Source of the DNA: a virus
Lineage: Duplodnaviria > Caudoviricetes
Strand: one strand, 5' to 3'
IMG/VR virus record: IMGVR_UViG_3300030328_002748
Coordinates: 1 to 64,000 of that record
DNA length: 64,000 nucleotides
The position numbers and the translations under genes were made by a program. The notes under the pieces are model-generated. The model was not told the origin of the DNA. It saw only the letters and a list, made by a program, of their open reading frames with translations, and searched no databases. Positions 1 to 64,000 of this stretch are shown piece after piece. The stretch's first letter is position 1; every line of letters begins with the position of its first letter.

Positions 1-195
1 AACCTTAACGGATTTAACTTCAACCAAAGTGTCGTAGATGCTAACGGTAAAGTTGTTCCTACATGGGGTGACGTTCTTAACAGAGCAAACCTTGGTATGG
101 AAGTAATGCATGAGCGTAATGCTCACAACTTCCCTCTAGATTTGGCTGCTGCTGAGTCTACTGAAGTTGCACTTATAGCACCTGCTGTAGGTTAG
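1..195 (+). CDS. psbA: Photosystem II D1 protein, C-terminal part (truncated by window start)
   Basis: Frame 1 reads [64 protein letters not shown], the D1 C-terminus. Confidence 0.98.
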
Positions 196-246
196 GCCAT
201 ATTATTTCGTTTTTTAATTCTAAAAAAGCGGTAAAAAAATCCCTGG
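196..246 (+). repeat. A/T-tract element, copy 1 (copy 2 at 15458-15507)
   Basis: GCCATATTATT..TTTTAATTC.AAAAAAGCG..AAAAAAA..CTGG begins directly after the psbA stop; a similar sequence begins directly after the g32 stop. Confidence 0.7.
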
Positions 247-265
247 CTTTTTTTAACGGCCAGGG

Positions 266-294
266 TTGACATCAAAAGGTTAATGTAATATAAT
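266..294 (+). promoter_or_regulatory. Sigma70-type promoter
   Basis: TTGACA (266-271), 17-nt spacer, TATAAT (289-294): exact consensus. Confidence 0.85.
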
Positions 295-295
295 T

Positions 296-320
296 AAGGG
301 GTCTTCGGATCCCTTTTTTT
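296..320 (+). terminator. Rho-independent terminator, probably for psbA
   Basis: AAGGGGTC-TTCG-GATCCCTT hairpin followed by a T run. Confidence 0.8.
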
Positions 321-408
321 ATGCATTTAGTATTACCAATAATTTGTATTGCCCTGATAACACTTGTTATCGTCTATTCAATTATCCAAAAGTATAATCC
401 TCATTGAT

Positions 409-738
409 ATGAGTAAAGAAGAATACACTAAGATGGATACACAGGGCATGGGAGCACCCATGTCACCTGAAGATCTTAAGAAATGGAAAGCATCACCTGA
501 GTATAAGAAGCAGCAACATAAACCTGCTATTAAAAAACCAATGCGGTTATTTACTGAGACTTATGCTAAGGAGATGAAGATACTTATTAATGAAGTATTA
601 GATGAGAGAGAACATAAGAAGAGATTAAATGGCCCATATGATAATGTTAAACCATTACCACCATCATACTTTGATACTGAACACTTCAAACATTATGTTG
701 GAGAAGAAGAACCACCTTATCAAGATTGGAGCCAATGA
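409..738 (+). CDS. Hypothetical protein
   Basis: ORF track 364..738; ATG at 409 (MSKEEY) is the more likely start. Confidence 0.65.
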   Translation: MSKEEYTKMDTQGMGAPMSPEDLKKWKASPEYKKQQHKPAIKKPMRLFTETYAKEMKILINEVLDEREHKKRLNGPYDNVKPLPPSYFDTEHFKHYVGEEEPPYQDWSQ

Positions 739-941
739 GTGAACATACATTCACATTCACTGAAGAGGAACTCTTATGTCTACAAGTATGTGTACAAAAT
801 GCACCAACACCATATGACATAGGTAGTAAGAAACCCATCAGAGAAAGTATACAAAAGATGATAGGTATTCCACCCAAGATAGAGGTAGAACCATTAAGAA
901 TGCCTAAGTATGATTTAACAAAATACGGAATAACTGATTGA
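735..941 (+). CDS. Hypothetical protein
   Basis: ATGA overlap with the previous stop; ORF track. Confidence 0.65.
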   Translation: MSEHTFTFTEEELLCLQVCVQNAPTPYDIGSKKPIRESIQKMIGIPPKIEVEPLRMPKYDLTKYGITD

Positions 942-6415: not shown

Positions 6416-7044
6416 TTTTTAATGATGTATGGAGTGATTACATTAATGTTCTAAGAGATAGGTTGGGTCTATTAGATGGAGAGTCATCTAACTGGGCCAG
6501 ATGGACGGGCAAGAACATTGAATTAGAGGCAACGATTCATACCCCCAAATACTGTCTTAAGTCCCGTGAGGTGACGATATGGAACACTAAAGGGACTTGC
6601 ATTTATAATAATATCATTTACCCTAAGACAGGGGCCAATTTGCCATGTTTTGGGGTGGATCTGATGATGTTCTTTCCGAAGAAAGTAGTTCTTACTTTTG
6701 ACTTCCAACATCCGAAAGAGAACTATCCTTTTTCAGTGGAAGGATTGCCTAAATGTGAAGGTGATATTAGATTCTTTGAGCCTGGTAATCACTTTTCTGA
6801 TAACTTATATGTACGGAAATGTACTATGGAAGGGATCAATGATTATCTAGAAGATTTTACAAAATATGTCGAAACCTTTGCAGATATGTTGTACTGTAAA
6901 AAACCTGAAGGACTAGATACAACTGAATATACTGATTTTGATCAGTACATGACTAAGTTAGATCCAGTTGCCGGTTATTTGGCCAACAATTTCGGAAAAG
7001 AAAAATCTGAAAAGTTTGTAAATGAATTTTTATTCTCTTATTGA
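6412..7044 (+). CDS. pebS: Phycoerythrobilin synthase (ferredoxin-dependent bilin reductase)
   Basis: IYPKTGANLPCFGVDL, FDFQHP, RFFEPGNHFS, FDQYMTKLDPV match recalled cyanophage PebS; near ho1. Confidence 0.9.
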   Translation: MIFNDVWSDYINVLRDRLGLLDGESSNWARWTGKNIELEATIHTPKYCLKSREVTIWNTKGTCIYNNIIYPKTGANLPCFGVDLMMFFPKKVVLTFDFQHPKENYPFSVEGLPKCEGDIRFFEPGNHFSDNLYVRKCTMEGINDYLEDFTKYVETFADMLYCKKPEGLDTTEYTDFDQYMTKLDPVAGYLANNFGKEKSEKFVNEFLFSY

Positions 7045-14560: not shown

Positions 14561-15457
14561 ATGTCTTTTTCAGACCTTAAAAAACAATCCAAATTGGGTT
14601 CTCTAACATCTAAATTGGTTAGAGAAGTCGAGAAGATGAACAATACTGGTGGAGGTGGTGATGACCGTCTCTGGAAACCAGAGGTAGATAAATCAGGTAA
14701 CGGTTATGCTGTTATTCGTTTCCTACCAGCACCAAACAACGAAGATATTCCTTGGGTAAAATTATACAAACATGCTTTCCAAGGCCCTGGCGGTTGGTAC
14801 ATAGAGAACTCTTTGACCACTCTTGGTCAGAAAGATCCTGTTTCAGAGTACAATACTACTCTATGGAACAATGGTACTGATGCAGGTAAAGAAACTGCAC
14901 GTAAACAGAAACGTAAGTTAGAGTATTATGCCAACATCTATGTTGTAAAAGATCCTACTAACCCTGAGAATGAGGGTGGTGTATTCCTTTACAGATTTGG
15001 TAAGAAAATCTTTGACAAGGTTATGGCAGCAATGCAACCAGAGTTTGAGGATGAGGAAGCGATCAATCCTTTTGACTTCTGGCAGGGTGCAGACTTCAAG
15101 ATTAAGATCAAGAAGGTTGCTGGATTCTGGAACTATGATAGTTCTGAGTTTGCTTCCCCATCACAAGTTTTAGATGGTGATGATGATGCTCTTGAAGCTC
15201 TTTGGAAGAAAGAGTATTCTCTTCAAGAACTCATTGCACCAGAAAAGTTCAAGTCTTATGATGAGTTGAAGACTCGTCTTAATGCTGTTCTTGCTACACG
15301 ACCAGTTCGTGAGAGTGAAGACTTGGAGAATGAAAGTGAAGGTCGTGGTTCTTATGAGCCTGAAGTCAATCTTAAAGAGAAGGTTTCTGCACCAGCAGCA
15401 TCCGACTCCGATGAAGATGAAGCTTTAAGTTACTTCCAAAAACTTGCTGAAGTCTAA
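14561..15457 (+). CDS. g32: Single-stranded DNA binding protein gp32
   Basis: DDRLWK..DKSGNGYAVIRFLP, WYIENS, FGKKIFDK, NYDSSEF, acidic C-terminal tail. Confidence 0.97.
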   Translation: MSFSDLKKQSKLGSLTSKLVREVEKMNNTGGGGDDRLWKPEVDKSGNGYAVIRFLPAPNNEDIPWVKLYKHAFQGPGGWYIENSLTTLGQKDPVSEYNTTLWNNGTDAGKETARKQKRKLEYYANIYVVKDPTNPENEGGVFLYRFGKKIFDKVMAAMQPEFEDEEAINPFDFWQGADFKIKIKKVAGFWNYDSSEFASPSQVLDGDDDALEALWKKEYSLQELIAPEKFKSYDELKTRLNAVLATRPVRESEDLENESEGRGSYEPEVNLKEKVSAPAASDSDEDEALSYFQKLAEV

Positions 15458-16201: not shown

Positions 16202-17668
16202 TTAGAATCCTACATCGTCTGGTTCAAAACCACCATCACGATAATCTCTATCGTATAGAGGTGTAAGTTCACTAAAGCTCATTGTTACGATAGTGGATAT
16301 TGGTTGTGAATCATCACCATAAGATTGCCATCTTCCAGTACCACCTGTGTAATCAACGTTGAGATTTGTCATTGCACAAGTCTTAAATTTATTTAATCCT
16401 TTTATTTCTTCATTCCTTGTTGAACCTCTTCTATATTGAATTCTCCATACACATGGACTACCTAATAACATATTTGATCCACCTTTAAAGTTTCCTACTT
16501 GTGGTGGGGCCTTTCTCACAGCCATTCGTTCTTTTAATGTACGAACGATAGATCTTACTATTTTTGCTTCATCTGTATTTCTTGGACTAAAACGTACTTG
16601 GAAATTGAATATTCTTAAGCCAGGGCCAGTGAATAGTAGTTCTAAGTTAGTATTTTCTATAAATCCAGTGGTTCTAGTAATAACAGCACCAACATCTACA
16701 TTTAGACCAACAACACTAGCTGCACCAGCTGCAGCTCCTAATAATAATCTTCTTCTAATAAAAGTAGATCCTGCTGTATTTCCAAAAGCTTTACCTAACT
16801 CACCAACATAACCCAAACTACTCTTTAAGAAATTTTGATTAGTTAAATCTTGTAAAGAAGCTGTTTTCTCTTTATCATTAAATTTATCACCTGCCAAAAG
16901 CCTCTCAGATGTGGGATTAAAGAGTTCACCAGCAACACTACTAAAACTATTAGCTCCCCAGTTTACACTATTTTGATCCGCAATCTGGTTAGGCATTGGG
17001 ATTATAATAGTTTCAAGTAATTTTGAATTATTTGTTCGTGACCATTGAGGCCGATCATAATCTTTATCAACTTTTGGAAGATTTTTAGCAGGTTCGTATC
17101 GTGCAGCAGTTATAGCTAAATGATCTTGTACTTTAAGATCCATATCAATTGGATACTTAAGGACTGAATAATTTGCATAACCACCTCCTACTGGGCCTGG
17201 GCCACCACCCTTGGCTCCTGTATATTCACTATTAGGAGTAGTTACCCCTGTAGTAACTTCTGATGTTCCTTCACTTTTATCATCGACATCATTGCCGGAA
17301 TTAAAATATTTCTTGTAAATTATACTAGATTTAGGCCATTTTTCTATTATATCTAAATCATTCTTATGAAAATCTAAACTAAGATCTACTGCTTCATTTC
17401 TATAAAAGCTAATTTGTTCAAGTGGATTATCACCACTAAAATATTGGTTAATCTCTGTATCACTAAAATTAAAATCAGTATCCCAAACGTTATATTGCAA
17501 TTCTGATACAGGAGATTCCGAATACAATAAAGTTCCTGTATTAGTTCTATATTCGTTTATATTTTCAATAGAATATACCTTATACAAGTCTAAGTCTGTA
17601 TCAAGAATTACAAATGTGTTATTATTAGCTAATAAATTACCTTTTATTTCCATTATCCTACCCTCCAT
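16202..17668 (-). CDS. g48: Baseplate tail tube cap gp48
   Basis: LELLFTGPGLRIFNF..FSPRN..EA, CAMTNLNVDYT, MSFSELTP. Confidence 0.85.
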   Translation of the reverse strand: MEGRIMEIKGNLLANNNTFVILDTDLDLYKVYSIENINEYRTNTGTLLYSESPVSELQYNVWDTDFNFSDTEINQYFSGDNPLEQISFYRNEAVDLSLDFHKNDLDIIEKWPKSSIIYKKYFNSGNDVDDKSEGTSEVTTGVTTPNSEYTGAKGGGPGPVGGGYANYSVLKYPIDMDLKVQDHLAITAARYEPAKNLPKVDKDYDRPQWSRTNNSKLLETIIIPMPNQIADQNSVNWGANSFSSVAGELFNPTSERLLAGDKFNDKEKTASLQDLTNQNFLKSSLGYVGELGKAFGNTAGSTFIRRRLLLGAAAGAASVVGLNVDVGAVITRTTGFIENTNLELLFTGPGLRIFNFQVRFSPRNTDEAKIVRSIVRTLKERMAVRKAPPQVGNFKGGSNMLLGSPCVWRIQYRRGSTRNEEIKGLNKFKTCAMTNLNVDYTGGTGRWQSYGDDSQPISTIVTMSFSELTPLYDRDYRDGGFEPDDVGF

Positions 17669-19597: not shown

Positions 19598-20305
19598 ATG
19601 CCTTTACCAACAATTGCAACTCCTACGTTTGAACTGACGTTACCATCAAACGGAAAAAAAATTAAATACAGGCCTTTCTTAGTAAAGGAGGAAAAACTTC
19701 TTATTTTAGCTCTTGAGAGTCAAGACACTAAAGATATTACTCGGGCTATAAAGGATACTTTAAAAAAATGTATTCTTACAAGAGGTATTAAAGTAGATCA
19801 GTTGCCTACTTTCGATATTGAATATATTTTCTTGAATATAAGAGGAAGATCTGTTGGTGAAACTTTGAATCTTAATATTATTTGTCCTGATGATGGAAAG
19901 ACAACAGTTCCCGTAGCTTTGGGTGTTGATGAAATCCAAGTTGTTAAAAATGACGAACATACTCTTGACATTGATATTGATGGAAAATATAAAATAAGAA
20001 TGAAATATCCTACTTTGGATCAATTCATTACAAATAATTTTAATTTTCTTGATGAAAAGGCTGATGTCTTTAAGATAGTTTCTCAGTGTGTTGATCTTGT
20101 ATATGATGATGAGACTGCTTATGAAGATTTCAATGAAAAGGAGATGATTAAATTCCTTGAACAGTTTAGTTCTCAACAGTTCAAGAATATTGAAAATTTC
20201 TTTGTAACTATGCCTAAATTATCTCATACTCTTGAGGTTATTAACCCAAATACTAAGAAGAAAAATACTATATTATTGGAGGGCCTATCCGCTTTTTTCG
20301 GGTAG
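19598..20305 (+). CDS. g26: Baseplate hub subunit gp26
   Basis: MPLPTI.TP, YRPFLVKEEK, FDIEYIFLNIRGRSVGE, MKYP, LEGLSAFF. Confidence 0.95.
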   Translation: MPLPTIATPTFELTLPSNGKKIKYRPFLVKEEKLLILALESQDTKDITRAIKDTLKKCILTRGIKVDQLPTFDIEYIFLNIRGRSVGETLNLNIICPDDGKTTVPVALGVDEIQVVKNDEHTLDIDIDGKYKIRMKYPTLDQFITNNFNFLDEKADVFKIVSQCVDLVYDDETAYEDFNEKEMIKFLEQFSSQQFKNIENFFVTMPKLSHTLEVINPNTKKKNTILLEGLSAFFG

Positions 20306-20307
20306 GT

Positions 20308-20490
20308 ATGGCTTACATCTCCGCTGAGTCATACTATAATTTAAACTTCTCATTGATGCAATACCATAAATATTCTTTGACGGAGATTGAGAATATGATG
20401 CCCTTTGAAAGGGATATATATGTTTCCTTACTTAAGAATTATCTTGAGGCTGAGAAACTCAAACATCAACAAGAACACGGATTAAGTTAA
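20308..20490 (+). CDS. g51: Baseplate hub assembly catalyst gp51
   Basis: NFSLMQYHKYSLTEIENMMPFERDIY. Confidence 0.93.
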   Translation: MAYISAESYYNLNFSLMQYHKYSLTEIENMMPFERDIYVSLLKNYLEAEKLKHQQEHGLS

Positions 20491-21932
20491 TGGGAGGAGC
20501 ATTATCAATTGGCGCATGGATGACCAAGACCCTTAAGGGCCTTGGATGGGCTATGGTTGCCGACAAGGCAGTGGATTGGACTACAAATTTTTTTAAAGGT
20601 AAAGCCCAAGATGCTAAGGATGCTTTTACTGGAAAGAAAACTGATCCTGATAAGGCAAAAAGTTTTATTTCAGGAGAGCCTTTAAGAGATAGTAATATTA
20701 AAGATACGGAACCAGATATTCAAGCAGTTGATAAACTTGGAGAACCACTTTTAATGGTTCCTCCTCAAGCACCTACTGTTCCAAATTTACTGCCGCCAGG
20801 AGCTCCACTTGGCATTACTACTGGTGAAGATACGACTATAGATTTTATAGTAAGAGAAATTAATAATATTAATTATAATGTGCAACAAATTGCCTGGGCA
20901 ATGGCACAAAATTCTGCGATTGATGCAGAGTTTAGGGAGTATCTTATACAAGAACAAAAGAGAGTATTAGCTGATAGGGGTAAAGAGGCTTCAAAACAGA
21001 AATCAAAGACTTCTAGAAAATTTGCTCAACAGATGAAACAGGCCACTGTTGATCCAATAAGAAGAAATTTACAATCAGCAGCAACACAGTTGGGAGGTGG
21101 TTTACTTGGTTATGCTGCATTGGTTGGTATTAGTGGTGTTCAACAATTAATGGATAATATAACTGGGAAGAATAAGAAAACTAATCAAGAAACTTTATTA
21201 AATGCCTTTAAAGATCAACCTCAAGCTATTAAATTGTTGGGTAGAATAAGGAAAGGTGAATCTGGTAATCAGTATGATGCAATATTTGATAGAGGTAATT
21301 TAAAAGATTTTGCTGAGGCCGAGGGTAAAGATATTACTAAAATGACTATAGATCAGGTAATAAAATTACAAAATGACTATAAAGAACATCAAAGAAAAAA
21401 AGGTGTGCCAGAAGAGGAAATTCGTGCTGGTATGGGTGCCTATCAGTTTAATGATGTTGCTACCGCTTTAGAAGGTACTAATATTAGTGGTAATCAGATG
21501 TTTGATACAAACGTTCAAGATGCTCTTGCTACTAATATGCTTAAAAATGCTGGATTAAAAGATTTTGCTGAAGGAAATCTATCAGTAGAAGAATTTGCGA
21601 ATAATTTGGCTAAAACCTTCCCTTCTATTAAGGGTGCTGATGGTAGTGGTATGTTTGAAGATATTGGTTTAAAAGGAACAAAAAATATCTTAGATGTACT
21701 TCAGAAATGGAATGAGACATTAAACTTGGAAGATGATACTGGTAACGAGGGTCTTAAAAGGTTACTAGACTTTTCTGAGACAGCAATATTACCAACTATA
21801 ACGAATGATATGAGAGATAAGAAGGATTTGAATCAAGAGAATTCTGGTGGTGTTGGTGGTAATGATTCTCCAGATCCTTTGGATCCAAATCCTATAGGAT
21901 CGCCATGGAAATCACTTTTAGGAGTTGATTGA
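20490..21932 (+). CDS. Baseplate/tail protein with a lysozyme-like (muramidase) domain
   Basis: GESGNQYDAIF..ITKMTIDQVI..GAYQF..FDTNVQD resembles lambda-lysozyme-like muramidases. Confidence 0.6.
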   Translation: MGGALSIGAWMTKTLKGLGWAMVADKAVDWTTNFFKGKAQDAKDAFTGKKTDPDKAKSFISGEPLRDSNIKDTEPDIQAVDKLGEPLLMVPPQAPTVPNLLPPGAPLGITTGEDTTIDFIVREINNINYNVQQIAWAMAQNSAIDAEFREYLIQEQKRVLADRGKEASKQKSKTSRKFAQQMKQATVDPIRRNLQSAATQLGGGLLGYAALVGISGVQQLMDNITGKNKKTNQETLLNAFKDQPQAIKLLGRIRKGESGNQYDAIFDRGNLKDFAEAEGKDITKMTIDQVIKLQNDYKEHQRKKGVPEEEIRAGMGAYQFNDVATALEGTNISGNQMFDTNVQDALATNMLKNAGLKDFAEGNLSVEEFANNLAKTFPSIKGADGSGMFEDIGLKGTKNILDVLQKWNETLNLEDDTGNEGLKRLLDFSETAILPTITNDMRDKKDLNQENSGGVGGNDSPDPLDPNPIGSPWKSLLGVD

Positions 21933-23133
21933 TATGGCTAGATCTCAAAAGGAAACCGATCTTATTTTTGATACTTTAGCACAATCTTTAGCTAAAACTA
22001 ATAAGGATACTAATAGTATTATAAACATAATAAAGAGAGATATAGAAACAAGAACATCATCTTTAACTCAAATTAAAGATCTTAACTATAGATTGGCCAG
22101 ATATGGTGCAATGATTGCTGGTGAGATTGGATCTGCTGGTGCAAGATTTGGTGCAGGTGTTGAATGGGGTCTTTTATTTCCAGCAGGCGCAGTAAAAGAT
22201 CAACCGTGGATACCTCCTAAATCTGGCAAACCTCCTTTAGGTCAGGAACAAGAAGCATGGTCGATGGAAAATGTCTGGCAGATGGATCTTTCAAAGGTAT
22301 TTGGTAAAGTACCTGAATGGATTCCCAATCCCGAAGATGGAACGGTTTGGGATGAGGGTATTGATACACAACTAGGAGGCTTTCCTGTCCCAGAGGAAGG
22401 ATGGTTAGATGAGACTATAAAAAAACGAGATGAAAAACCTGAGATTAAAACGGGAACGGAACCATTTCCAGGCACCTCAACAGTAATTGAGAAGGAAGTA
22501 ACTGAGGAAAAATTTGAACCACAATATGTATTTTCTTCTCAATTAGAACAGTCAGTTGCAGCTATACAGAAGATGGATATAAATCAATTGAGTACTAAGG
22601 CTGCAGACCTTGATTCAATGTATAAAGATTTAATGGTAAGTAGGAGTAGTACTGAAAATCACAGGGCCTATGCTGCTATAACAAAAAGATTAGAGGAAAC
22701 TTTAATACAATTAGCTGCTGTTCAGGAACGACTAAAATCTTTAAACGCTATTACACCTACTGTTGATGGTGGTGTCACTATTACTGAATCACCAGAGATA
22801 AATTTTGAACAAGTAAAGGATGTTTTTACTATAACTCAAGTGTTACTTGATATTGCTGCTTTATTGGGTGTAACTGCTGGTGCTGCAGAACCAGGCTCAA
22901 CTGCTGCAGGTTTAACTCGTCTTGGTTTGCGTTTTCCAGCGTATCAAAGATTATTTCAAAGATTTTCGACTGGAAATCTCTTATCAAATGCATCTAATAC
23001 AAACTCAAATTCATTAGGTGGTGTGCCAATAGCCTTAAATAATAGTACAGGAGATCTTAATAATACGATAACTGACATTCAACAAACTGCTTCTGAACGG
23101 ATCTTTATTCAACCAGTACATACAATAACATGA
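21925..23133 (+). CDS. Putative virion structural protein
   Basis: 402-aa ORF inside the baseplate operon. Confidence 0.6.
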   Translation: MIDMARSQKETDLIFDTLAQSLAKTNKDTNSIINIIKRDIETRTSSLTQIKDLNYRLARYGAMIAGEIGSAGARFGAGVEWGLLFPAGAVKDQPWIPPKSGKPPLGQEQEAWSMENVWQMDLSKVFGKVPEWIPNPEDGTVWDEGIDTQLGGFPVPEEGWLDETIKKRDEKPEIKTGTEPFPGTSTVIEKEVTEEKFEPQYVFSSQLEQSVAAIQKMDINQLSTKAADLDSMYKDLMVSRSSTENHRAYAAITKRLEETLIQLAAVQERLKSLNAITPTVDGGVTITESPEINFEQVKDVFTITQVLLDIAALLGVTAGAAEPGSTAAGLTRLGLRFPAYQRLFQRFSTGNLLSNASNTNSNSLGGVPIALNNSTGDLNNTITDIQQTASERIFIQPVHTIT

Positions 23134-24470
23134 GTTATATAAAAGATATACGAATTAAAGATTTTGCAATTACCGCAATTAATGGTGATAGTATAGGAGT
23201 AGGGTTTCATCTTAGAAATGGTAAACCCGTTGATGGTAGTGGTATTAGTGGTATTGTAAGATTTGATTATTTTGAAAGTATATTTAATCCTAATGTTGCT
23301 GCTAGTATAGTTCTTACAGCTACCAGTCAAATAATTTCAGATCTTCCCATAAGAGGTACAGAAAAAGTAGAATTTACTTTAACACATCCTAGTGGTGAGC
23401 CTATTGAATTTAAAGAAGAATTGGGAACTCATTGGGTTGTAGATGGTATAGAAGAACCATCAACCAGTTCAACACAGGAGATGATTTTACTTAGATTGAC
23501 TACATCAGAGAATATTAGACAAGAATTAGTAGATAATAGATTAACACTTAGATATGATCCATCAGTTGCTATTAATGTACATGTTAATAGTATATTAAGT
23601 AATTTGGGAACCTTAAAAGAGTTTGATATTGAGAAGACTGCTAATTCATATGGTTTTTATGGTAATTATTGGAGGCCCTTTAAGGCAATATATTGGTTAG
23701 CTAAGAGAGCTACTGCTACTGGGGGTGGAGATAGAGCTGGATTTTTATTCTGGGAAACTAAATCAGGATACCATTTTAAGAGTATTGATACTATTGCTGC
23801 AACAGCAAAAGAGTCTGTTGTTCAGACATTTAAACAAAAAGAATCTGCAGCGGAGAATGAGGATTCAAATGATTATAATATATTCAATCCATTTGTAGAA
23901 ATTAATCAGAATATTGTTGGTCAACTAAGAAAACGTGGATATGGTCATAATACAAAATATTTTAATCCATATGAGATGCCTCAGACTTTCCAACCAGAGG
24001 AGACTATAAAATTATCACAGACATTTGAGAAGTCTGATTCTTTTGGTACTGATGATTATGATAAAAAAGATCTTGGAGTCGGTGATAACCCTACAAGTGT
24101 AGATGTTCAACCATATGTTAGTGGTACAATGACCCAAGATGGTACTGTTGATCCTTCTTCTGATAGTGGAGATCCTCAAAAATGGGGAATACAATCTAAT
24201 ATAAAATACCAACAAATTTTATCACAATCCCATAGATTAACAGTTCCAATGAATTTTGATCTTGAGGCTGGATTACCAATTAACCTTGAGTTAATAGCTC
24301 CTAACACAGGCCTTGACAGTTCTGAAAGTGGAGTGTATCTTATAAAAGACCTTCGACATGCAATATCCTTTGAACAAGGAACTGCTGAGTGTACCACCCA
24401 TATGCGTTGTATTCGTGATAATTATGGGAATGAAGGTATAAACACGAATATTACTTTATTAAATAGTTAA
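23130..24470 (+). CDS. Baseplate hub protein (gp27-like)
   Basis: FDYFESIF, LPIRGTE, PFKAIYWLA, FLFWETKSGYHFKSID, SGVYLIKDLRH. Confidence 0.75.
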   Translation: MSYIKDIRIKDFAITAINGDSIGVGFHLRNGKPVDGSGISGIVRFDYFESIFNPNVAASIVLTATSQIISDLPIRGTEKVEFTLTHPSGEPIEFKEELGTHWVVDGIEEPSTSSTQEMILLRLTTSENIRQELVDNRLTLRYDPSVAINVHVNSILSNLGTLKEFDIEKTANSYGFYGNYWRPFKAIYWLAKRATATGGGDRAGFLFWETKSGYHFKSIDTIAATAKESVVQTFKQKESAAENEDSNDYNIFNPFVEINQNIVGQLRKRGYGHNTKYFNPYEMPQTFQPEETIKLSQTFEKSDSFGTDDYDKKDLGVGDNPTSVDVQPYVSGTMTQDGTVDPSSDSGDPQKWGIQSNIKYQQILSQSHRLTVPMNFDLEAGLPINLELIAPNTGLDSSESGVYLIKDLRHAISFEQGTAECTTHMRCIRDNYGNEGINTNITLLNS

Positions 24471-24488
24471 AGAGTTTGAGAAAAACTT

Positions 24489-24716
24489 ATGGAAACCATA
24501 GAACAACACATAGAAAAAGATAAAGAGATCTTAGATGATCCAACAACAAATCCTGCTGCAAGAAGGCATATCAAGGATGAGTTACATGATTTGATAGAAT
24601 ATGAAGAGCATCATCACGAAGAAATTGTAGCAGGAGATCACCATGATCCAAATGCACTTGAACTCTTTTGTGACCAGCATCCAGACGAGCCAGAGTGTTT
24701 AGTATATGATGACTAA
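24489..24716 (+). CDS. cp12: CP12 Calvin cycle inhibitor
   Basis: ARRH..ELHDL..LELFCDQHPDEPECLVYDD C-terminus. Confidence 0.95.
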   Translation: METIEQHIEKDKEILDDPTTNPAARRHIKDELHDLIEYEEHHHEEIVAGDHHDPNALELFCDQHPDEPECLVYDD

Positions 24717-24742
24717 ATAAATTATACTATCTTTATCATTGA

Positions 24743-29269: not shown

Positions 29270-29272
29270 CCC

Positions 29273-29301
29273 TTGCCAAGGTGGGTATGTAGTGGTATTA
29301 T
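29273..29301 (+). promoter_or_regulatory. Sigma70-type promoter
   Basis: TTGCCA-N17-TATTAT. Confidence 0.6.
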
Positions 29302-40271: not shown

Positions 40272-43200
40272 ATGCCTAAGTACATTTCAGGTAGAGTACC
40301 AGTTAATGCTCCTGGCGACGCCGGACTCTCTACAGACAGACACACTTTTCTAGGATTAGAGGATGCAGAACCTAATCTAGGATTGGCTAGTGCAAATCAA
40401 TCTGTTATCATAAGTGATACTACAGGCACAAGAGGATTTTCAGATACACCTACTGTAACTGGTGCTAATGTAACAGGAATAATTACTGCAACTACAGGAA
40501 TAATTACTACAGTCAATGCGGAAACGCTTGATGCTGGAGCGAATCTATATGCCCTTGCTGGTGTTGTAACCACCCTAACTGTTACAGATACAGTAGCTAC
40601 GGCCTCTACTGCCACTAATCTTACTGTATCAGGAATCACATCTGTTAAGGATATTGTAGGTACATCTGGTACTATCACTAACTTAACATCCACTGACACT
40701 AATGTTAGTGGTGCTTTAACATCTGTTGATGCCACATTTACTCGACTAACTCCTGAAGATACAGTCGGTACTGCTGCAACATTTACAGATCTTAACGCTA
40801 CAAGATTTACTCCCACGGATACTGTAGGTACTGCTGCAACCTTTACTAATCTTTCACTTACCAATCTTGATGGTGGAGATGGTACTCTTAATATTCGTGC
40901 GAATATACTTGATACTCAGACTTTATATGGTGTAACTGGTGTTGTTACTACCTTAACTGTTGCTAACCGTGTTGTTGTTAGTGGTGGTGCAACAGTTTCA
41001 GGGGCAATGACCGTCACTGGAAATACTCAATTCTGGGGTGGTATAAGAGATAAAGATGGACAAATAGGTGATGCAGGCCAAGTTCTTCAATCAACAGGAA
41101 GTCAGGTTAACTGGGTAAACACTCCTGCTGGTGGTATTACAATTAAGGATGAAGGTGCTACTGTAGGTACTGCTGGTAGTGTTGTTATTGTCAACTTTGT
41201 TGGAACTGGAGTTACTGCTTCTGCTAGTGGTTTAGGTGCTACTATTACAGTAGATCAACTCGATAAGGCTAATGGTTTAGATAGTCAGGTTCAATATAAT
41301 AATAGTGGTACATTAGGTGGTGCAACTGGATTTGTCTTTACAGATTCCAATAACTATGTTGGTATCGGAAGTACAAACCCACAAAGACAGGTAACTATCG
41401 GTGGAGATGGTACTGTTCATGGTAAGTGGTACACACAAAGAACATATACAACTACCAATATTCCACTTGATGCTTTAGAATATGTTCCTAAGTCATATGT
41501 TGATGCTGTTCAGGCTGGTATCGTTGTTAAGGCTGCCGTATCTATGGCATCCACAGAGGCCATCAGTGCTTACACATACAATAATGGATTATCTGGTGTT
41601 GGTGCAAAGATTTGGAAGAATACTAATGGTTTAGGTGCTATTGATGGTGTTGACTTTACAGTTCAAGCTCGTGTTCTAATTAAAGATCAAGGTGCTTCTG
41701 GTGTAGGTAATACATTTGAGAATGGATTCTATGAGGTTACTAGGACTGGATCTGGATCAACTTCATGGGAGTTGCAAAGAACCAATGATATGGACGAACC
41801 AGACGAAATGGTTTCTGGTGCGTTCGCTTTCGTTCTTGAAGGTGTTAGAAACAGTGGTAATGGTTTCGTTCAGTTAACGAAAGAACCAGTTGCGATTGGT
41901 ACTACTGCATTAGAATATACCCAGTTTACGGCGCCTGGACAGGTAGAGGCTGGTGATGGTTTACAGAAGACTGCCAATACTATTGATGTTGTTAGTGCTG
42001 ATACTAATGCAATCTATATTACTCCTGATAATATTAATTTAAAGGCTATTAACCCGTCGCAAAGTTATGTTTCAACGGGATCGACGCAATTTGTACAGGC
42101 TATTAGTATCGATTCATATGGTCGGGTTACGGGTGTTGTAACGACGAATGAATATACTAAGGCCACCCAAGTAACTCATGGTGTCGTTAGGATACCAGCA
42201 GAGGCAAGTAGTGGATTAACGATCAGTAGTGGTGAACTAGGTCTAACGAATTGGCCAACATTCACGAACTTAAAAGTAACGGGTATTACAACTAATGTAG
42301 TAACCTCAGCTACTTCTAATACTACATCATCTCTTACTGTTACTGGTGTTACTACTCATACTGGGGCTTCTAGATGGAGTGATAGTACTAAACTTCTTAT
42401 CGGTTCAGATAACGACCTTCAAGTATATCATACAGGATCAATAGGATATATTGATAATAATACAGGTAATTTATTTGTTAGAAATAATGTTGATAATGAT
42501 GATGGTGGTAATATAGTAATTCAGGCTAAGTCTGGTGAAAATTCTATTGTCGCTAATGATGATGGTTCAGTTGATTTACATTATGATGGTGGTGATGCCA
42601 AACTCCAGACAATTGGATATGGTATTACTGTAAATGGAACTGCCTGGCTTGATGCAACTCAAGTTGGTGGTGCAGCCACGATTGGTGCTACTTTAGAACT
42701 ACAGTCATTCCTGAAAGACTACTATAATCAAGTTGGTGCTGCAACATCAGTTCTTATTGGTGATGCTAATGGTACTAAGTGGGAGTCTATTGCGACTGCT
42801 GCATTACAAGGGCCTAAAGGACAGAAAGGAGAAGTAGGTGATAAAGGACAGAAGGGAGAAAAAGGAGAGAAGGGACAGAAAGGTGAGAAAGGTGAAAAGG
42901 GACAGAAGGGAGAAAAGGGTGAAAAAGGTCAGAAGGGTGTTGATGGTGTAGATGGCCCAACAGGGCCCACCGGCCCAACTGGGCCTACAGGCCCAACCGG
43001 CCCAACTGGCCCTAAAGGTCAAAAGGGTGAACAAGGTGCAACTGGCCCGACTGGCCCAACAGGCCCCACTGGCCCTAAAGGACAGAAAGGTGCTCAGGGT
43101 GCAACTGGCCCAACAGGGCCAACTGGCCCAACCGGCCCTCAAGGTTCCAAAGGACAGAAGGGTGCTCAAGGATCTACTGGCCCAACAGGGCCAACCGGCC

Positions 43201-44114
43201 CTACCGGCCCAACTGGCCCAACAGGTCAGAAAGGTCAGAAGGGTGCAACTGGTAGTACTGGCCCAACAGGCCCTACAGGCCCTGCCGGCCCCAACAATCC
43301 ATCATCTGTTCAGATAACAGGTAGTGGTAATGATGTTCTTAACTTTACTGCAAACTCATCTAATGACAACAGAGGTATGTCGTTCAACTCTAGAACGGCT
43401 GTTACCGCTGACTATAATGATGGTTGGTTGAGAGTTAATAATGAGAATGAGTTTGGTAATGGTGTTTATTCACCAGAGAAATTCCGTGGTGATTCAGGTA
43501 TGTATGTATCTGGTTCCAGATATATTGATGATAACTTAGGTGACTACGGAACAATTCGTTGTGGTGGTAATGGTGCTGGTAACTGGGAAGGATTCTCTAT
43601 TGATGGTCGTGAAGTATTCATGCACGATGGTGGTAACGCTACTGGTTTATACAATGATGTGAACAATGAGTGGATGGTTTATTGTCAGAATAACTCATAT
43701 GTTCAGTTGAGACATAATAACACTACTAGATTAGAGACATCTAACAATGGTGTTAGTATTAATAACATCATGACTTGTAACTCTGACAAACGATTGAAGG
43801 AGAACGTCACTAATCTTGACGGATCTTTGGATAAAGTTTTGAAGATGAGAGGTGTTTCCTTCAACTGGATAAATGAGAAGGATGATAGAGATGATGGACA
43901 ACCGACTATAGGTTTCCTTGCACAAGAGATGCAAGAAGTTGAACCTAGTTTGGTTTATAACTCTAATACAGCTGCAGATGGAACTCAATATCTAGGAGTT
44001 GCATATCAAAACTTATCTGCACACTTGGTTGAGGCCATTAAGGAACAGAATGATGTCATAAATAACTTGAGAGCACGAATCGAAGTCTTGGAGAAACACA
44101 ATGGCATTGAGTAA
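40272..44114 (+). CDS. Tail fibre with collagen triple-helix segment and C-terminal S74 chaperone
   Basis: 54 Gly-X-Y triplets; [38 protein letters not shown]. Confidence 0.9.
42810..43295 (+). repeat. Collagen-coding repeat, (Gly-X-Y)54
   Basis: [18 protein letters not shown] ... [12 protein letters not shown] with no interruption; 9-nt periodicity. Confidence 0.97.
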
Positions 44115-45897: not shown

Positions 45898-46445
45898 ATG
45901 GTGAATGGGCTATATGGAAAAGGGCATTTACAAAAGAGGAATGTCATGATATAATAGAACGAGGCCAAAAACTTGAAGTTGAAGAGGCCGATTTGGGAGC
46001 TCATGGTGATAATAAGAATAAAGAATATCGTAGGAGTGAAGTCAGATGGATGAATGAGGATCTATTTGAGGATATTTTTGATAAGATGTGGAAAATGACT
46101 ATTAAGGCTAATACCCAATGGTTTGGTTTTCATATTGATGAATTAAGATATATGCAATTCACTGAGTACCATGAAAGTTATAAGGGAGAATATAAGAAAC
46201 ACCATGATGTTTTTTGGACTGAACCAAAACATAGAAAGTTATCTGTGGTATTACAACTAACTGACCCAGATACATATGAAGGGGGAGATCTCCATCTTAC
46301 AGTTCAAGGAGAAAGACCGGCCTTTTATAAAGATCAAGGAACTGTGATCTGGTTTCCATCATGGACTCCACACTGGGTAACTCCAGTTACAAAAGGTATT
46401 CGTAATAGTGTTGTTTGTTGGTTTGAGGGGCCACATTGGAAATGA
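45894..46445 (+). CDS. 2OG-Fe(II) oxygenase
   Basis: QFTEY..YKKHHD, RKLSVVLQL, YEGGDL, FPSWTPHWVTPVTKGIRNSVVCW. Confidence 0.92.
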   Translation: MNGEWAIWKRAFTKEECHDIIERGQKLEVEEADLGAHGDNKNKEYRRSEVRWMNEDLFEDIFDKMWKMTIKANTQWFGFHIDELRYMQFTEYHESYKGEYKKHHDVFWTEPKHRKLSVVLQLTDPDTYEGGDLHLTVQGERPAFYKDQGTVIWFPSWTPHWVTPVTKGIRNSVVCWFEGPHWK

Positions 46446-48322
46446 AAAAATTCTGTATTTCACTACCAGAAAGAGAAGATCGTAAGAGATGGTTCTATGA
46501 CCAGAACTCTGATAAGATAGACTATGAAATATTTAAGGCCATTGATGGTCGTAAGTTTGATTATAGTTTTCTATATGCTTCGGGTTTTGATACCTATAAA
46601 AATTGGCGTGACCCAATTAATCATACACATATCACAGGTGGAGAGATAGGATGTTTTCTTTCTCACTATTCTTTATGGATGAAATGTGTTGAACTCGATG
46701 AACCCATAATGATATTTGAGGATGATGCTAATATTACAGATGAATGGGATGAATCAGAAATTAATAAACTCATAGAAGAATATAATTTTATCTATCTTGG
46801 TTGGCTTGAGATGGGTAAATCTAAATCAGTCAAAAAGAAAAAGAAATTAGTTGTTCCTGAATATCCATACTGGACACTTTCATACGTTATAACTCCTGAA
46901 GCTGCAAAAATTTTAACTGAAGGCAATCCACAGAAAGAAATTATACCTGTAGATGAATATCTACCTGCACAATTACATAGACTCAATGTAGTTGGATATA
47001 AAGAGAATGTTGTTATCCCTGCTGGTAGAGAGATATTTGGTACAGATGTAGATCCTCATAATAGATATGATTATTTCCTAGACTTTAGAACACATGCTGT
47101 AACTATTGGTGATGATGATTCAAAATGTTGGAGGTTACATGAATCTGCACATGGTAAGAACTTTAGAGTAAAGAATCTATGTATTGGTCAAGATATTAAA
47201 TGGACAGGATCAGATATGAGTGGGCCTGGAGGAGGTCAAAAGGTTAATATTTTACGGGACTACATTTATTGTCTACCAGACCATGATGTAGTATTATTTG
47301 CTGATGGATTTGATACGTTTGCAATATCAGATTTAGAAGAGATAACACGTAGATTTCTTGAGTTTAAATGTAAGGTATTATTTGCAGCTGAAGAACATCT
47401 ATGGCCCGATAAAGACTTAGAGTTTCCTGAATGTGAAACTAAGTATAGGTATTTGAATAGTGGATTGTTTATTGGTAGAGTTGATGAACTCAAAAGAATA
47501 ATGAATGCTGGGATAAAGAATGAGGAAGACGATCAACTTTATTATCAGAAGGCATATTTGAATGGTGATTCAACTGCTCCTGAGTCTGAAAGATTAGATA
47601 TAAAATTGGATCATGAATGTTATGTCTTTCAGTGTCATGAAGAGAATTTAAAGATAGAAAGAGGAACATTATTTAATAATGAGACTAGATGTTATCCTTG
47701 TTTCTATCATGGTAATGGGGATGGGTCTGCAAAGAAACATTTCCAGAGTGTATTTGATAGATTCTTTGGTGGTGGAATAGTATATACCCAAACAGACCAA
47801 TATGAATTACTTGGGCCTGACATGATTCTTGTTGATTATATGTCACCAAATATGTGTCATGAAATGATTCGTAGAGCTGATGAATATGGTCAATGGGGTA
47901 GTCTTTCATATGATAAATTCCCTGCTCAAGAGATTAGATTAAAAAAAATAAGTCTATGGGAAGAGATGGCAGAACATTGGCAAGATATATTAAATCCAAT
48001 CATTGAACGATTCTGGCATCCTATGGAGATGTATGGTATGAGAGATGCTTTTGTTATGAGATATGCTATGAATACACAAACAAATTTGGCCTTACATAAT
48101 GATGCCTCTTTGGTGACTGGATCTGTTAAACTAAATGATAACTATCAAGGTGCAGATCTAGAGTTCCCTAGACAGAAATTCAGTAATAAGGATATACCTG
48201 TTGGTAAGTGTATATTATTTCCAGGCCAAGTTTCACATGGACATACTTGCACCGAGTTAAAATCAGGTGTTAAATATAGCTTAACCATGTGGTCTAAACG
48301 ATTCCATAAAGATGAGGTGTAA
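46436..48322 (+). CDS. Three-domain collagen-modifying enzyme: GT25 (COLGALT-like), PLOD-type glycosyltransferase, lysyl hydroxylase
   Basis: GEIGCFLSH, FEDD, YWTLSY, PVDEYLP; GGGQKV, FADGFD, LFAAE..WP, YLNSG.FIG, EDDQLYY, HGNG; YGQW, FVMRY, HND..SHGH. Confidence 0.88.
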   Translation: MEMKKFCISLPEREDRKRWFYDQNSDKIDYEIFKAIDGRKFDYSFLYASGFDTYKNWRDPINHTHITGGEIGCFLSHYSLWMKCVELDEPIMIFEDDANITDEWDESEINKLIEEYNFIYLGWLEMGKSKSVKKKKKLVVPEYPYWTLSYVITPEAAKILTEGNPQKEIIPVDEYLPAQLHRLNVVGYKENVVIPAGREIFGTDVDPHNRYDYFLDFRTHAVTIGDDDSKCWRLHESAHGKNFRVKNLCIGQDIKWTGSDMSGPGGGQKVNILRDYIYCLPDHDVVLFADGFDTFAISDLEEITRRFLEFKCKVLFAAEEHLWPDKDLEFPECETKYRYLNSGLFIGRVDELKRIMNAGIKNEEDDQLYYQKAYLNGDSTAPESERLDIKLDHECYVFQCHEENLKIERGTLFNNETRCYPCFYHGNGDGSAKKHFQSVFDRFFGGGIVYTQTDQYELLGPDMILVDYMSPNMCHEMIRRADEYGQWGSLSYDKFPAQEIRLKKISLWEEMAEHWQDILNPIIERFWHPMEMYGMRDAFVMRYAMNTQTNLALHNDASLVTGSVKLNDNYQGADLEFPRQKFSNKDIPVGKCILFPGQVSHGHTCTELKSGVKYSLTMWSKRFHKDEV

Positions 48323-61553: not shown

Positions 61554-61717
61554 GTTTAATCAAAGAATTTTATTCTGGACTCCTTGACAAGGGTTACACT
61601 GAACGAGAAATCCGAGAGTCTTGTAAGAAACACCAGACCCGAACCGCACCCGATTGGTTCAACGGATCATACGAGGATTATCTGGAATCAATGCACGATT
61701 TTCTGAACGGTCTCTAA
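61550..61717 (+). CDS. 55-aa early protein
   Basis: MSLIKEFYSGLLDKGYTERE...; AGGAGG RBS; terminator at its end. Confidence 0.65.
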   Translation: MSLIKEFYSGLLDKGYTEREIRESCKKHQTRTAPDWFNGSYEDYLESMHDFLNGL

Positions 61718-61871
61718 GACCGTTCTTTTTTTATGTGTGACGGTTAGCGAAGCGGCCAAGGCCGAAGGCCAGTTGGGAAACTGGACTTTTTTGTTTCAAA
61801 CCCGTTACAATCGATTTACGAGGCAACCCCTTACCGTTTATAATTTGGGAGTAACAAACGCACCACGTTTT

Positions 61872-62282
61872 ATGCCTCGTAAGTCAACCGCATCCAAGTC
61901 AACCGCAACTGCTCCAAAAGCACCACGTAAGACAAGGACTCGTAAGACTACACCCGCTGCAATCAAGACCGTAACAAGTCCAGCAGTAACCAAAGAGAAA
62001 ATTGAGCAGTGCATTAATGCACCTGTTAGAACTCTCAAACCAGTTGAACCAAAGGCAACGACTGTAACCACTTTCAAAGCAGGTAAGGTCGTTTCTAAAG
62101 AGTTGATGAGACCAACAGCACCACTAATCCAATTAAAGGATTATCGCCGAGACATCATCAACCGCTGGAACATTCATAATTATGAAATCCAGCAACTAGG
62201 TAAAGACTTTCAAAAGTTCTTTAACTTCGTTCAACCCTTACATTCAGACCTAGTTAACCGCATAAAAACGGTTGAACTCTAA
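61872..62282 (+). CDS. Basic early protein with Lys/Thr/Ala/Pro-rich N-terminus
   Basis: MPRKSTASKSTATAPKAPRKTRTRKTTPAAIK...; TATAAT at 61839; terminator at about 62290-62316. Confidence 0.7.
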   Translation: MPRKSTASKSTATAPKAPRKTRTRKTTPAAIKTVTSPAVTKEKIEQCINAPVRTLKPVEPKATTVTTFKAGKVVSKELMRPTAPLIQLKDYRRDIINRWNIHNYEIQQLGKDFQKFFNFVQPLHSDLVNRIKTVEL

Positions 62283-62523
62283 ACCCCAAGACCCCGCCGC
62301 AAGGTGGGGTTTTTTTATTGCTCAACTGAGAAGGCCAGCTGGCCAGTCAAAAAACTGTCACAAGTGTAGGTAGACAGGTTCCCAAAATCGACTATAATTT
62401 AAAATGTAAGGGACATGAGAGACACGGACATGGGATTCGTTTCTAGACCGTTTCCAGACATGTATACCCTCTGAACTCTGGAGTTCCTTACAACAAAAAT
62501 TTCACACCAAAGGAGTTTTAAAA

Positions 62524-62652
62524 ATGTCAGTTCTACATCATGCGGAAATTCAAGAGACCTTATTAGATGAGGTTTGCGAAGAGTTCCCAAATATGTCCTA
62601 CGACACTCAAATTGAAATTGCAATGCAACGTTTTGAGGATCTCTGTCAGTAG
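62524..62652 (+). CDS. 42-aa early protein (not in ORF track)
   Basis: MSVLHHAEIQETLLDEV...RFEDLCQ*; AAGGAG RBS. Confidence 0.7.
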   Translation: MSVLHHAEIQETLLDEVCEEFPNMSYDTQIEIAMQRFEDLCQ

Positions 62653-62753
62653 GTAACGAATTATTACAGACCCCTTCTCAGGGGTCTTTCCTTTTGTATA
62701 ATAAAGGAGTGGGAGAGAAACCCACAAATCACACCCCACGATTTTTTTCTAAC

Positions 62754-63095
62754 ATGCGTAAAATTGAAAGACAAATGAACTTCGCAATTTCCAACAAAGG
62801 GAATTGGTCACTTTCCAACACCTCAGTCGAGTACAACGAAAGTACAAACTGTTCAAACGTTTTTCTACATGGTCACAACATCGCAACTGTAGACCACGGA
62901 ACCAATTCTGTAAAATTGAGTTCATGCGGATGGGAAACCGTAACGACCAAATCAAGACTGAACGCAATTTTGCAAGAGGTCAAAACTGGTTTTTCAGTTT
63001 TCCAAAAACAGTTCGAGTGGTTTCTAAATGGTCAAGGTCAGACGGTTGATTTTATTGACGGAATGATTTTACTTGATTCGGGTGAGGTCGTTTAA
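62754..63095 (+). CDS. Conserved cyanophage early hypothetical protein
   Basis: MRKIERQMN..VFLHGHNIA..GW.T.TTKSRLNA..VFQKQFEWF. Confidence 0.8.
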   Translation: MRKIERQMNFAISNKGNWSLSNTSVEYNESTNCSNVFLHGHNIATVDHGTNSVKLSSCGWETVTTKSRLNAILQEVKTGFSVFQKQFEWFLNGQGQTVDFIDGMILLDSGEVV

Positions 63096-63727
63096 ATGTA
63101 CGACGGAATCACACCTTGGCAAATACCCGTCTATTCTGACGGGTATCGCCCCGCCGACGATGACGAATTAATGAACGTATTCTACGACGACATTAAGGAA
63201 GACATCGACCCCGAAACCCAAAAACTTTTAAACAACTTTTAAATGCCATCATTCGCTAACACCACTGTCCGCTATTGGATGCCCCATGATCAGAAATGCC
63301 GTTACATTTCTTTCAGCACTTATCTCAAGGCATTAGAAATGCAAAAATGGTATAGCGATATTGCCGGGTTCAAAGCAGAGATAGTCGTATGACACCCAAG
63401 GAACTGGCCAGCTGGCCGGTTCCTTTTTTCATGCCATCGCCTATAATGACTATAGGACACACACCCCGCTTCGTCTTCACTATGACTCTTTCTGAATTAG
63501 GATCTTGCTCAAAGTTAGATCTACTCATCGCCGAAACACAGGGCAAATGCTGCGTTACAAGATTGAAAACCAGAAAACCCCGTAAGGGTGAACTGGTTAT
63601 GAGCATGACCAAGGGGAGCAGAACTAACACAAATCGCAGGGGGCAGGCATACTCCGCCCACGCACTGCGACCTGAAACCAACGTTATCTCCGCCCCTGCC
63701 TCATCGTATTTCAAGACCAGCGGATAA
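63096..63727 (+). other. Three small early CDSs (63096-63242, 63243-63392, 63482-63727)
   Basis: Translated by hand; abutting starts and stops; the last follows the promoter at 63403-63447 and precedes a hairpin at 63736-63764. Confidence 0.6.
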
Positions 63728-64000
63728 TCACACCTTGCCCCTGAGCGCTTCGTGTTCAGGGGCAGTTAATTGGGGGGTTTATAAAAAAAGCGAACTTCCC
63801 TAACCTACAAAAGTCTGCTTTCGCTATAAAATACAAAACGCATAAGTGTTTTCCGTGGCATACAAAAAATTTTGGTGGCCTAGAAATTTCCCACAGGATG
63901 TGTTATAATTAGAAGTGAAGCCACTCAAAGGATCTATGAGCGACTTAAGGTTCCATGTTTATGGGAGGAAGAACAAAGTTAAAGCAATCAATATATCGCA

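Follow-up and report, generated by a model that had tools for sequence, protein, structure and literature searches.

Avoidance of restriction sites is known from virulent phages, including cyanophages without host AvaII-type sites. S-TIM5 is a cyanophage that is not T4-like. This marine cyanomyovirus (Sabehi et al. 2012) reportedly carries cytosine methylation in a short context, at both A-C and G-C, which is thought to act against nucleases. In phages with the C5-methyltransferase/TET/glycosyltransferase hypermodification system, as PMC8256090 (Burke et al. 2021, PNAS) presents it, the mark is made by the phage after replication and has a presumed anti-nuclease role. Phage Mu Mom (PF25680, PDB 8bv8) is described in PMC13219725 as a GNAT-fold protein that marks double-stranded DNA after replication at a short degenerate motif and so blocks many restriction enzymes; in the same description it moves glycine from Gly-tRNAGly onto the N6 of adenine in double-stranded DNA. 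Here we analysed a stretch of 64,000 nucleotides (the window), which is the first 64 kb of one IMG/VR virus contig of 116,397 bp (record IMGVR_UViG_3300030328_002748) and has a G+C content of 36.5%. Many Type II sites have been cleared from this phage genome via synonymous changes, and sites beginning with C are kept only as 5'-GC[C/T] on at least one strand. Such a footprint probably reflects a base modification of the virion DNA, for which a DruA-family protein found in related phages is the candidate writer.

A site was called flanked when a G lies immediately 5' or a C immediately 3' of it, HCCGGD and HCCWGGD being the unflanked forms. In the window, all the CCGG (19/19), CCWGG (47/47) and CCSGG (3/3) sites are flanked, in agreement with the sequence-only reading of this DNA, which had claimed that every CCGG and CCNGG touches a GpC. 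Comparison with 200 synonymous-codon shuffles showed 0 HCCGGD for 30.6 ± 4.6 expected (lowest shuffle 18), 0 HCCWGGD for 39.2 ± 3.7 (lowest shuffle 31) and, for the GGWCC that had also been reported missing, 0 for 56.9 ± 3.7 (lowest shuffle 47). HCTGCAGD (0 vs 8.5 ± 2.6), GGTACC (0 vs 9.7 ± 2.9) and TTCGAA (0 vs 11.7 ± 3.3) are absent too, and GGCC is commoner than expected (184 vs 95.6 ± 6.8), with 83 copies of GGSCC. The footprint and representative retained sites, taken from the shuffle counts and from the listing of flanks, are as follows.

1 to 64,000, no strand: window-wide footprint, with CCGG, CCWGG, CCSGG, CTGCAG and CCATGG flanked only and GGWCC, GGTACC and TTCGAA at 0
6971 to 6974, no strand: retained CCGG with a 5' G (tGCCGGtt), one of the 19 listed with their flanks
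22891 to 22895, no strand: retained CCWGG spared via the bottom strand alone (aACCAGGCt)
16729 to 16734, no strand: retained CTGCAG (cagCTGCAGctc), whose 5' G gives a GCT step; 9 in the window, all flanked
21903 to 21908, no strand: retained CCATGG (tcgCCATGGaaa); 4 in the window, all flanked

The individual examples quoted in the sequence-only reading proved exact, at 6781, 12177, 33181, 30640 and 22891 for CCWGG and at 6971, 17295, 15469 and 46317 for CCGG, and its remark that A-preceded sites are not exempt agrees with the zero counts of both HCCWGGD and HCCGGD.

The same pattern was found over the whole contig, for which 125 open reading frames (ORFs), called greedily and covering 92% of its length, were shuffled 300 times by exchanging synonymous codons within each gene, and every palindrome of 4, 5 or 6 bases was scanned and split by flank. 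CCGG (32/32) and CCWGG (112/112) are always flanked and GGWCC is again at 0, with expectations of 56.7 ± 6.4 for HCCGGD, 89.7 ± 5.5 for HCCWGGD and 81.7 ± 4.9 for GGWCC. The rule extends to CTGCAG (13/13 flanked; unflanked 0 vs 18.9 ± 4.1), CCATGG (6/6; 0 vs 8.3 ± 2.3) and CCSGG (3/3; 0 vs 10.2 ± 3.2), and the lone copies of CCTAGG, CTCGAG and CACGTG are each flanked. Because CCWGG as a whole is about as frequent as expected (112 vs 123.6), the flanked copies, about 3-fold more numerous than the 33.5 expected, are enriched and not a mere leftover. GGCC (294 vs 136.7 ± 8.5) and GGSCC (120 vs 44.1 ± 5.7) are both commoner than expected. Seventeen hexamer palindromes are at count 0, including GGTACC (about 20.4-20.8 expected), TTCGAA (28.6 expected) and GTGCAC (6.8 expected). 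CAGCTG, CATATG, CAATTG, CTTAAG and CTATAG are common and follow no flank rule, and neither does CCNNGG, with 40 unflanked copies of 94; the effect is therefore site-specific.

The absence of GGWCC is visible in the choice of glycine codons. Gly-Pro pairs are written with GGC or GGG in 57/57 cases in the window genes and in 78/78 cases in the contig, as had been noticed earlier by eye, the collagen repeat included; overall, glycine is encoded by GGT (1634), GGA (866), GGC (308) and GGG (142), GGT and GGA making up 85%. The repeat itself is placed as follows.

42810 to 43295, plus strand: collagen-like Gly-X-Y repeat of the 1280-amino-acid fibre gene (40272-44114), with Collagen and Peptidase_S74 domains

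In this repeat Gly-Pro is always GGC-CCN or GGG-CCN, so that no GGWCC is formed, and GGSCC runs densely from 42954 to 43287. A 628-amino-acid protein with GT25 and PLOD-GT domains (window 46436-48322) adjoins the collagen-like fibre gene.

A single flank suffices for sparing, because 102 of the 112 CCWGG sites of the contig are flanked on one side only (both-sided, 10). An extra constraint of the motif at position -2 was rejected, since all four bases occur before the sparing G. The sparing step is not GCC alone, because GCTGCAG, which contains a GCT step, is also spared (13/13). GCA gives no rescue: the inner GCA of CTGCAG is unprotective, and GTGCAC is purged from the contig and also from two relatives (0 vs 16.7 in S-CAM9; 0 vs 24.6 in a 239-kb IMG/VR genome). 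In S-SSM7, CAATTG is at 0 vs 93.4, the G-flanked copies being gone too. The unprotective GCA of CTGCAG and GTGCAC serves as a test of marking at every GpC (M.CviPI-type), with the limit that the enzymes may ignore that position. The context 5'-GC[C/T] thus fits better than any GpC. The earlier proposal that sites of the HpaII/MspI, EcoRII/ScrFI and AvaII/Sau96I types have been lost except where a C of the site follows G agrees with the counts, one flanked strand being enough. Its corollary of a modification in GC or GCC context is probably right as to the G-C context and is to be refined to GC[C/T], indiscriminate GpC being disfavoured by the unprotective GCA.

An exemption set by the flank, with one strand sufficing, is the logic of protection by modification. 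The virion DNA probably carries a post-replicative base modification in 5'-GCY-3' / 5'-RGC-3' context. The marked base may be the cytosine of GCY or, on the opposite strand, the guanine of RGC, the sequence being compatible with both, and the same latitude applies to the group that would be added. Such a mark would block the relevant host endonucleases even when one strand is modified, which would make these sites neutral, and sites that never hold GC[C/T] at the critical base (GGWCC, GGTACC, TTCGAA, GTGCAC) would have had to be wholly purged.

By its gene content, the contig is an uncultured T4-like cyanomyovirus (Kyanoviridae) whose nearest relatives are S-CAM9, S-8S5x and S-PRM1. Domain matches showed gp32, long tail fibres, a collagen-like fibre, UvsW, terminase, sheath, portal, prohead protease and scaffold genes, and the closest portal proteins, at 87% identity, come from S-CAM9, S-8S53/55/56 and S-PRM1, with the runner-up at 66.6%. 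The gp32 gene is a marker for this placement.

14561 to 15457, plus strand: gp32 single-strand DNA-binding protein (PF08804, 171.8 bits), placing the contig among the T4-like cyanomyoviruses

The contig is rated linear and 59% complete, and its 3' end falls within gp23, according to our reading of the translated terminal bases. By synteny with S-CAM9 we infer that the absent 41% of the genome extends from gp23 to psbA and includes the replication module. An exact 49-nucleotide word from the contig end had no match in viral or metagenome contigs. Across 11 studies, 20 public metagenome runs (one possibly being the source) contain DNA near-identical to window 20000-29999, and 15 of the 20 runs contain at least half of the sampled words. 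Given these 20 runs, the phage is real and widespread in marine and aquatic samples.

The rule was also found in six further genomes, S-CAM9, S-PRM1, S-8S55, S-SSM7, S-SCSM2R and the 239-kb IMG/VR genome (rated 100% complete), hereafter the rule genomes, and the phages that show it span the genera Kanaloavirus, Makelovirus, Lipsvirus and Tamkungvirus as well as unclassified members. All the CCGG sites are flanked in S-CAM9 (37/37; unflanked 0 vs 115.6 ± 8.6), S-PRM1 (32/32; 0 vs 111.1), S-8S55 (22/22; 0 vs 135.3), S-SCSM2R (14/14; 0 vs 200.8) and the 239-kb genome (23/23; total expected 245), and 11 of 13 are in S-T4. In S-SSM7 the rule is borne by CCWGG (196/206 flanked; unflanked 10 vs 199.3), CTGCAG (27/27; unflanked 0 vs 47.1) and CTCGAG (5/5). 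The purged sites vary from phage to phage: S-CAM9 retains GGWCC and unflanked CCWGG. Each phage bears its own list of forbidden sites, as S-SSM7 and S-SM2 illustrate, and such differences are expected if the mark is common and the enzymes of the hosts differ. In S-SM2, CTAG and CCTAGG are both at 0. TTCGAA is at 0 vs 82.6 in the 239-kb genome and at 2 vs 54.9 in S-CAM9, and GGTACC is near-absent from cyanomyovirus loci generally (3 in 698 kb, 6 in 757 kb and 1 in 689 kb, for loci L001-L080, L085-L164 and L176-L255, respectively).

Among IMG/VR loci, the signature of the window was seen in 4 of 80 anchored on gp32 and in 1 of 80 anchored on the portal gene, with one further portal locus that has just two CCWGG. 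CCWGG is unflanked in 695/848 cases in the gp32-anchored loci and in 759/931 in the portal-anchored loci; base composition is therefore not the cause of the rule. Two of the signature loci, L003 and L040, had no close cultured relative in a nearest-neighbour DNA search. No paper on this pattern in cyanophages was found in our literature searches, the supplements of PMC8256090 and PMC13219725 lying outside the search.

A candidate writer was found at the clamp-loader locus. S-CAM9 gp115, a protein of 383 amino acids encoded between two clamp-loader genes, matches the DruA family PF14236 at 38.6 bits (cut-off 27), and matches were also obtained in the low-GC locus L223 (38.7 bits) and in the 239-kb genome (37.4 bits). 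PF14236 is above cut-off in 10 of 19 cyanomyovirus records, with a weak match in S-T4, and all six rule genomes are among the 10. The gene order in L223 is gp45, gp44, DoxX, DruA-like, denV, gp62; besides the DruA-like protein, the interval from gp44 to gp62 encodes a membrane protein of the DoxX family and a pyrimidine-dimer glycosylase, denV (L223 6903-12078). No partners of the type I Druantia context (druB-E, DruE helicase) are annotated at the phage locus between gp44 and gp62. Judged by title and abstract, the listed papers on DruA, Druantia and DUF4338 deal with Druantia systems, mostly of type III (DruH-DruE), or with other aspects of defence. No paper on DUF4338 in cyanophages was found.

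The 399 ORFs of S-CAM9 were compared, without use of annotation, with 16 other sequences in a phyletic profile in which four of the six DruA-negative genomes were partly loaded. It singled out only two separate genes that every rule genome has and all six DruA-negative genomes lack: the DruA-like gene and a PTOX/alternative-oxidase (AOX) gene (S-CAM9 record 88176-88679; L171 8176-8679). The PTOX/AOX gene, an unrelated oxidase, is missing from the contig though its region is covered. In 55 loci whose DruA is at least 79% identical to that of S-CAM9, 26 CCGG sites were counted and none is unflanked, compared with 133/194 unflanked in the gp32 set and 186/251 in a further control set. A low-GC subgroup of 22 loci (168 kb) has 109 CCWGG, 10 of them unflanked, and 6 GGWCC. 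Among 80 loci anchored on gp44, 5/5 with the signature of the window carry the DruA-like gene, and the signature is found in 0/49 without the gene. DruA-like genes are frequent beside gp44 (31/80 loci match the profile, with several deep clades at 46-68% identity), and the sequence footprints of these deep-clade genes, if any, are other than GCY.

The presence of the gene goes along with the fate of flanked copies. Among genomes from which unflanked CCGG is nearly or entirely lost, five DruA-positive ones still contain CCGG, at 27-62% of the flanked copies expected, namely 37 vs 59.7 in S-CAM9, 32 vs ~57 in S-PRM1, 22 vs ~75 in S-8S55, 14 vs ~52 in S-SCSM2R and 23 vs 60 in the 239-kb genome, whereas DruA-negative genomes purge flanked CCGG as well (DSL-LC03, 1 vs ~32; P-TIM68, 0 vs ~19). 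In the DruA-negative P-SSM2, CCGG is at 0 in the 200 of 252 kb loaded, a count that stands without a shuffle null. The rule is present in 6/9 DruA-positive and 0/6 DruA-negative genomes (one-sided Fisher p ~0.017), a value that ignores kinship and carries little weight.

Structural modelling suggests what kind of enzyme the DruA-like protein might be. The AlphaFold model, built on an alignment of 29 sequences, has a mean pLDDT (predicted local distance difference test) of 70.6. Foldseek gave weak matches (best E 7e-3), all of them to GNAT acetyltransferases, and exhaustive structural comparison gave Z scores of 6.0-7.6, nearly all with acyltransferases of the GNAT superfamily, FemA being at Z 7.5. 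Mu Mom (8bv8_B) is found at Z 6.7, with a root-mean-square deviation of 4.4 over 166 aligned residues, level with many other GNATs. A GNAT fold is thus likely for the modelled protein, and a specific kinship with Mom is conceivable. The authors of S-SCSM2R describe a mom homologue in the text of PMC12801897, and the DruA-like gene of that phage (PF14236) may be the gene they mean. The contig also encodes a tRNA that could matter for such an enzyme.

29521 to 29591, plus strand: tRNA-Gly(TCC), the sole tRNA of the 116-kb contig and a possible, circumstantial supplier of co-substrate if the writer is Mom-like

This tRNA occurs in 11/11 DruA-positive genomes vs 2/6 DruA-negative ones (four of these six partly loaded); S-CAM9 has 8 tRNAs, at two sites. 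Since GGA codons are frequent in the contig, translation alone could explain tRNA-Gly(TCC). By analogy with Mom, the mark may be an acyl or aminoacyl derivative on the N4 of cytosine, or on the guanine paired with it, and not a methyl group, with the phage tRNA-Gly(TCC) as a conceivable source of the donor.

Several observations weigh against a DruA-family writer of a GCY mark. The contig has no PF14236 match, its clamp-loader region being absent, and we infer that the gene lies in the missing part of this phage. All the fold matches are below Z 8, a range flagged as possibly generic; PF25680 has no match in the contig and none in S-SCSM2R, and a profile made from the DruA-like alignment did not retrieve Mom (8bv8) from the PDB sequences. 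In the account given by PMC8256090, GpC[C/T] specificity is known among phage enzymes from C5-methyltransferases only. Three DruA-positive phages are without the rule, their total/flanked CCGG counts being 74/27 in S-SM2, 45/16 in SynMITS9220M01 and 118/36 in Sf-CH5; CCGG is not strongly avoided in these phages and their DruA proteins are 46-51% identical. In the IMG/VR loci L247, L248, L249 and L253, which have DruA homologues at 65-68%, 6/7 CCGG are unflanked. Small sets that are entirely flanked occur in DruA-negative genomes (ACG-2014f, CTCGAG 3/3; P-SSM2, CCATGG 3/3). S-SSM7 has 0 CCGG, including the loss of ~55 expected flanked copies, from which it follows that the mark is not protective against every enzyme. 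Finally, the association of DruA with the rule comes from related phages of few independent lineages, with no phylogenetic correction. Taking these points together with the distribution of the gene, we find the case evenly balanced that the writer is the DruA-family (PF14236) GNAT-fold protein of the clamp-loader operon and not an S-adenosylmethionine methyltransferase. The fuller proposal, by which this enzyme writes a non-methyl GC[C/T] mark coupled to replication and possibly derived from glycine via the phage tRNA-Gly, is built on the analogy with Mom and is tentative, indeed rather doubtful. As a whole, a GCY mark with a DruA-family writer encoded in the absent replication module is the explanation that we prefer, with moderate confidence.

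The footprint might conceivably arise with no modification at all, through poor cleavage by endonucleases beside G or C or through a mutational or codon-pair bias towards GCC and GGC. The cleavage rate of some Type II enzymes does depend on the flanks, and GGCC is over-represented 2.1-fold (294 vs 136.7). However, at least five unrelated sites share one exemption with 0 exceptions in 166 (32 CCGG, 112 CCWGG, 3 CCSGG, 13 CTGCAG and 6 CCATGG), CCNNGG has no flank effect, unflanked sites are plentiful in the gp32 set of related cyanomyoviruses (695/848 CCWGG, 133/194 CCGG) and DruA-negative phages that avoid CCGG lose their flanked copies too, all of which makes this explanation distinctly unlikely. 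A mark made by the host, through an orphan or restriction-modification methylase acting at GCY, would account for the lack of a writer in the 116 kb, and GGCC and other cytosine methylases are common in cyanobacteria. But phages of the same host differ: on WH7803, total/flanked CCGG is 32/32 in S-PRM1 and 14/14 in S-SCSM2R vs 126/38 in S-SKS1; on WH8109, S-SSM7 obeys the rule and Bellamy has 122/38; and on WH8102, S-8S55 has 22/22 vs 118/36 in Sf-CH5. Since the rule tracks instead a phage gene, we consider a host origin of the mark very improbable.

A phage C5-methyltransferase acting at GpC or GpC[C/T], perhaps followed by TET oxidation and glycosylation, as in the metavirome clusters of C5-methyltransferase, TET and glycosyltransferase genes, and encoded in the absent 41%, seems to us improbable as well, to a lesser degree than the two preceding explanations. 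It draws on the fact that GC[C/T] is the exact specificity of the phage C5-methyltransferases of clades I and II, as given in PMC8256090, on the 59% completeness of the contig, and on the richness of the contig and its relatives in 2-oxoglutarate-Fe(II) oxygenases and glycosyltransferases. Profile searches of the contig, itself incomplete, gave no match to PF00145, PF01555 or PF02086, which is consistent with the sequence-only reading that the window holds no methyltransferase gene, and no ORF of the contig or of S-CAM9 has a C5 (PCQ-type) or amino-methylase catalytic motif. PF00145 is above cut-off in 0/19 cyanomyovirus records, the six complete rule genomes included, which speaks against the M.CviPI-like cytosine methyltransferase first imagined as writer, and Tet_JBP (PF12851) is above cut-off in 0/20 records, contig included. 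An unrecognised methylase with the distribution of the rule would have been flagged by the phyletic profile, which found none. PF02086 was not detected in S-CAM9, S-PRM1 or the 239-kb genome, the three rule genomes searched for it, and PF00145, PF01555 and PF02086 were not detected in two partial IMG/VR contigs, families such as PF05869 and PF02384 lying outside the search. PF01555 is found in 4/19 records (P-SSM2, P-TIM68, S-SKS1 and S-CAM7), none of which has a DruA-like gene. Counted the other way, it is present in 4/8 records without a PF14236 match vs 0/11 with a DruA-like match, a complementary distribution suggestive of two alternative ways of countering restriction.

Of the viruses that infect the main primary producers of the ocean, Kyanoviridae rank among the most abundant. 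For these phages, a short-context mark able to defeat restriction enzymes by entire classes would influence both the range of hosts and the arms race with picocyanobacteria. The footprint could serve as a predictor, from sequence only, of modified phages, of their motif and of the host endonuclease specificities that they have met, and the idea is directly testable because the rule is present in the cultured phages S-CAM9, S-PRM1, S-8S55, S-SSM7 and S-SCSM2R. If the writer is indeed DruA-like, the DruA family, which also contributes a component to type I Druantia, would gain its first biochemical function; this would offer a handle on the role of DruA in that system and, possibly, a new enzyme with which to mark DNA motif-specifically. 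The GCY mark, so far known from C5-methyltransferases alone, would then be reached by a second enzymatic route, independent of the first.

Compared with the C5-methyltransferase/TET/glycosyltransferase hypermodification, the footprint is alike in its GC[C/T] context with GCA disfavoured, to the extent that PMC8256090 sets this out; here only the footprint is read, and the pair that defines that system, PF00145 with TET/JBP, is undetected in the contig or the six rule genomes. S-TIM5 differs in that here A-preceded sites are unspared (HCCWGGD and HCCGGD at 0) and the base after the C counts. The G-C context is shared with M.CviPI, the chlorella virus enzyme named in PMC8256090, which methylates every GpC, whereas GCA steps are unprotective in our phage and no C5-methyltransferase gene was found. 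The candidate in the relatives would resemble Mom in its GNAT fold, but it matches PF14236 and would act at a GCY motif, Mom working on adenine N6 with Gly-tRNAGly. With ordinary avoidance the genome shares the complete loss of GGWCC, GGTACC, TTCGAA, GTGCAC and 13 other hexamer palindromes; ordinary avoidance, however, ignores the flanks, whereas in this phage one flank context lets five sites be retained and even enriched.

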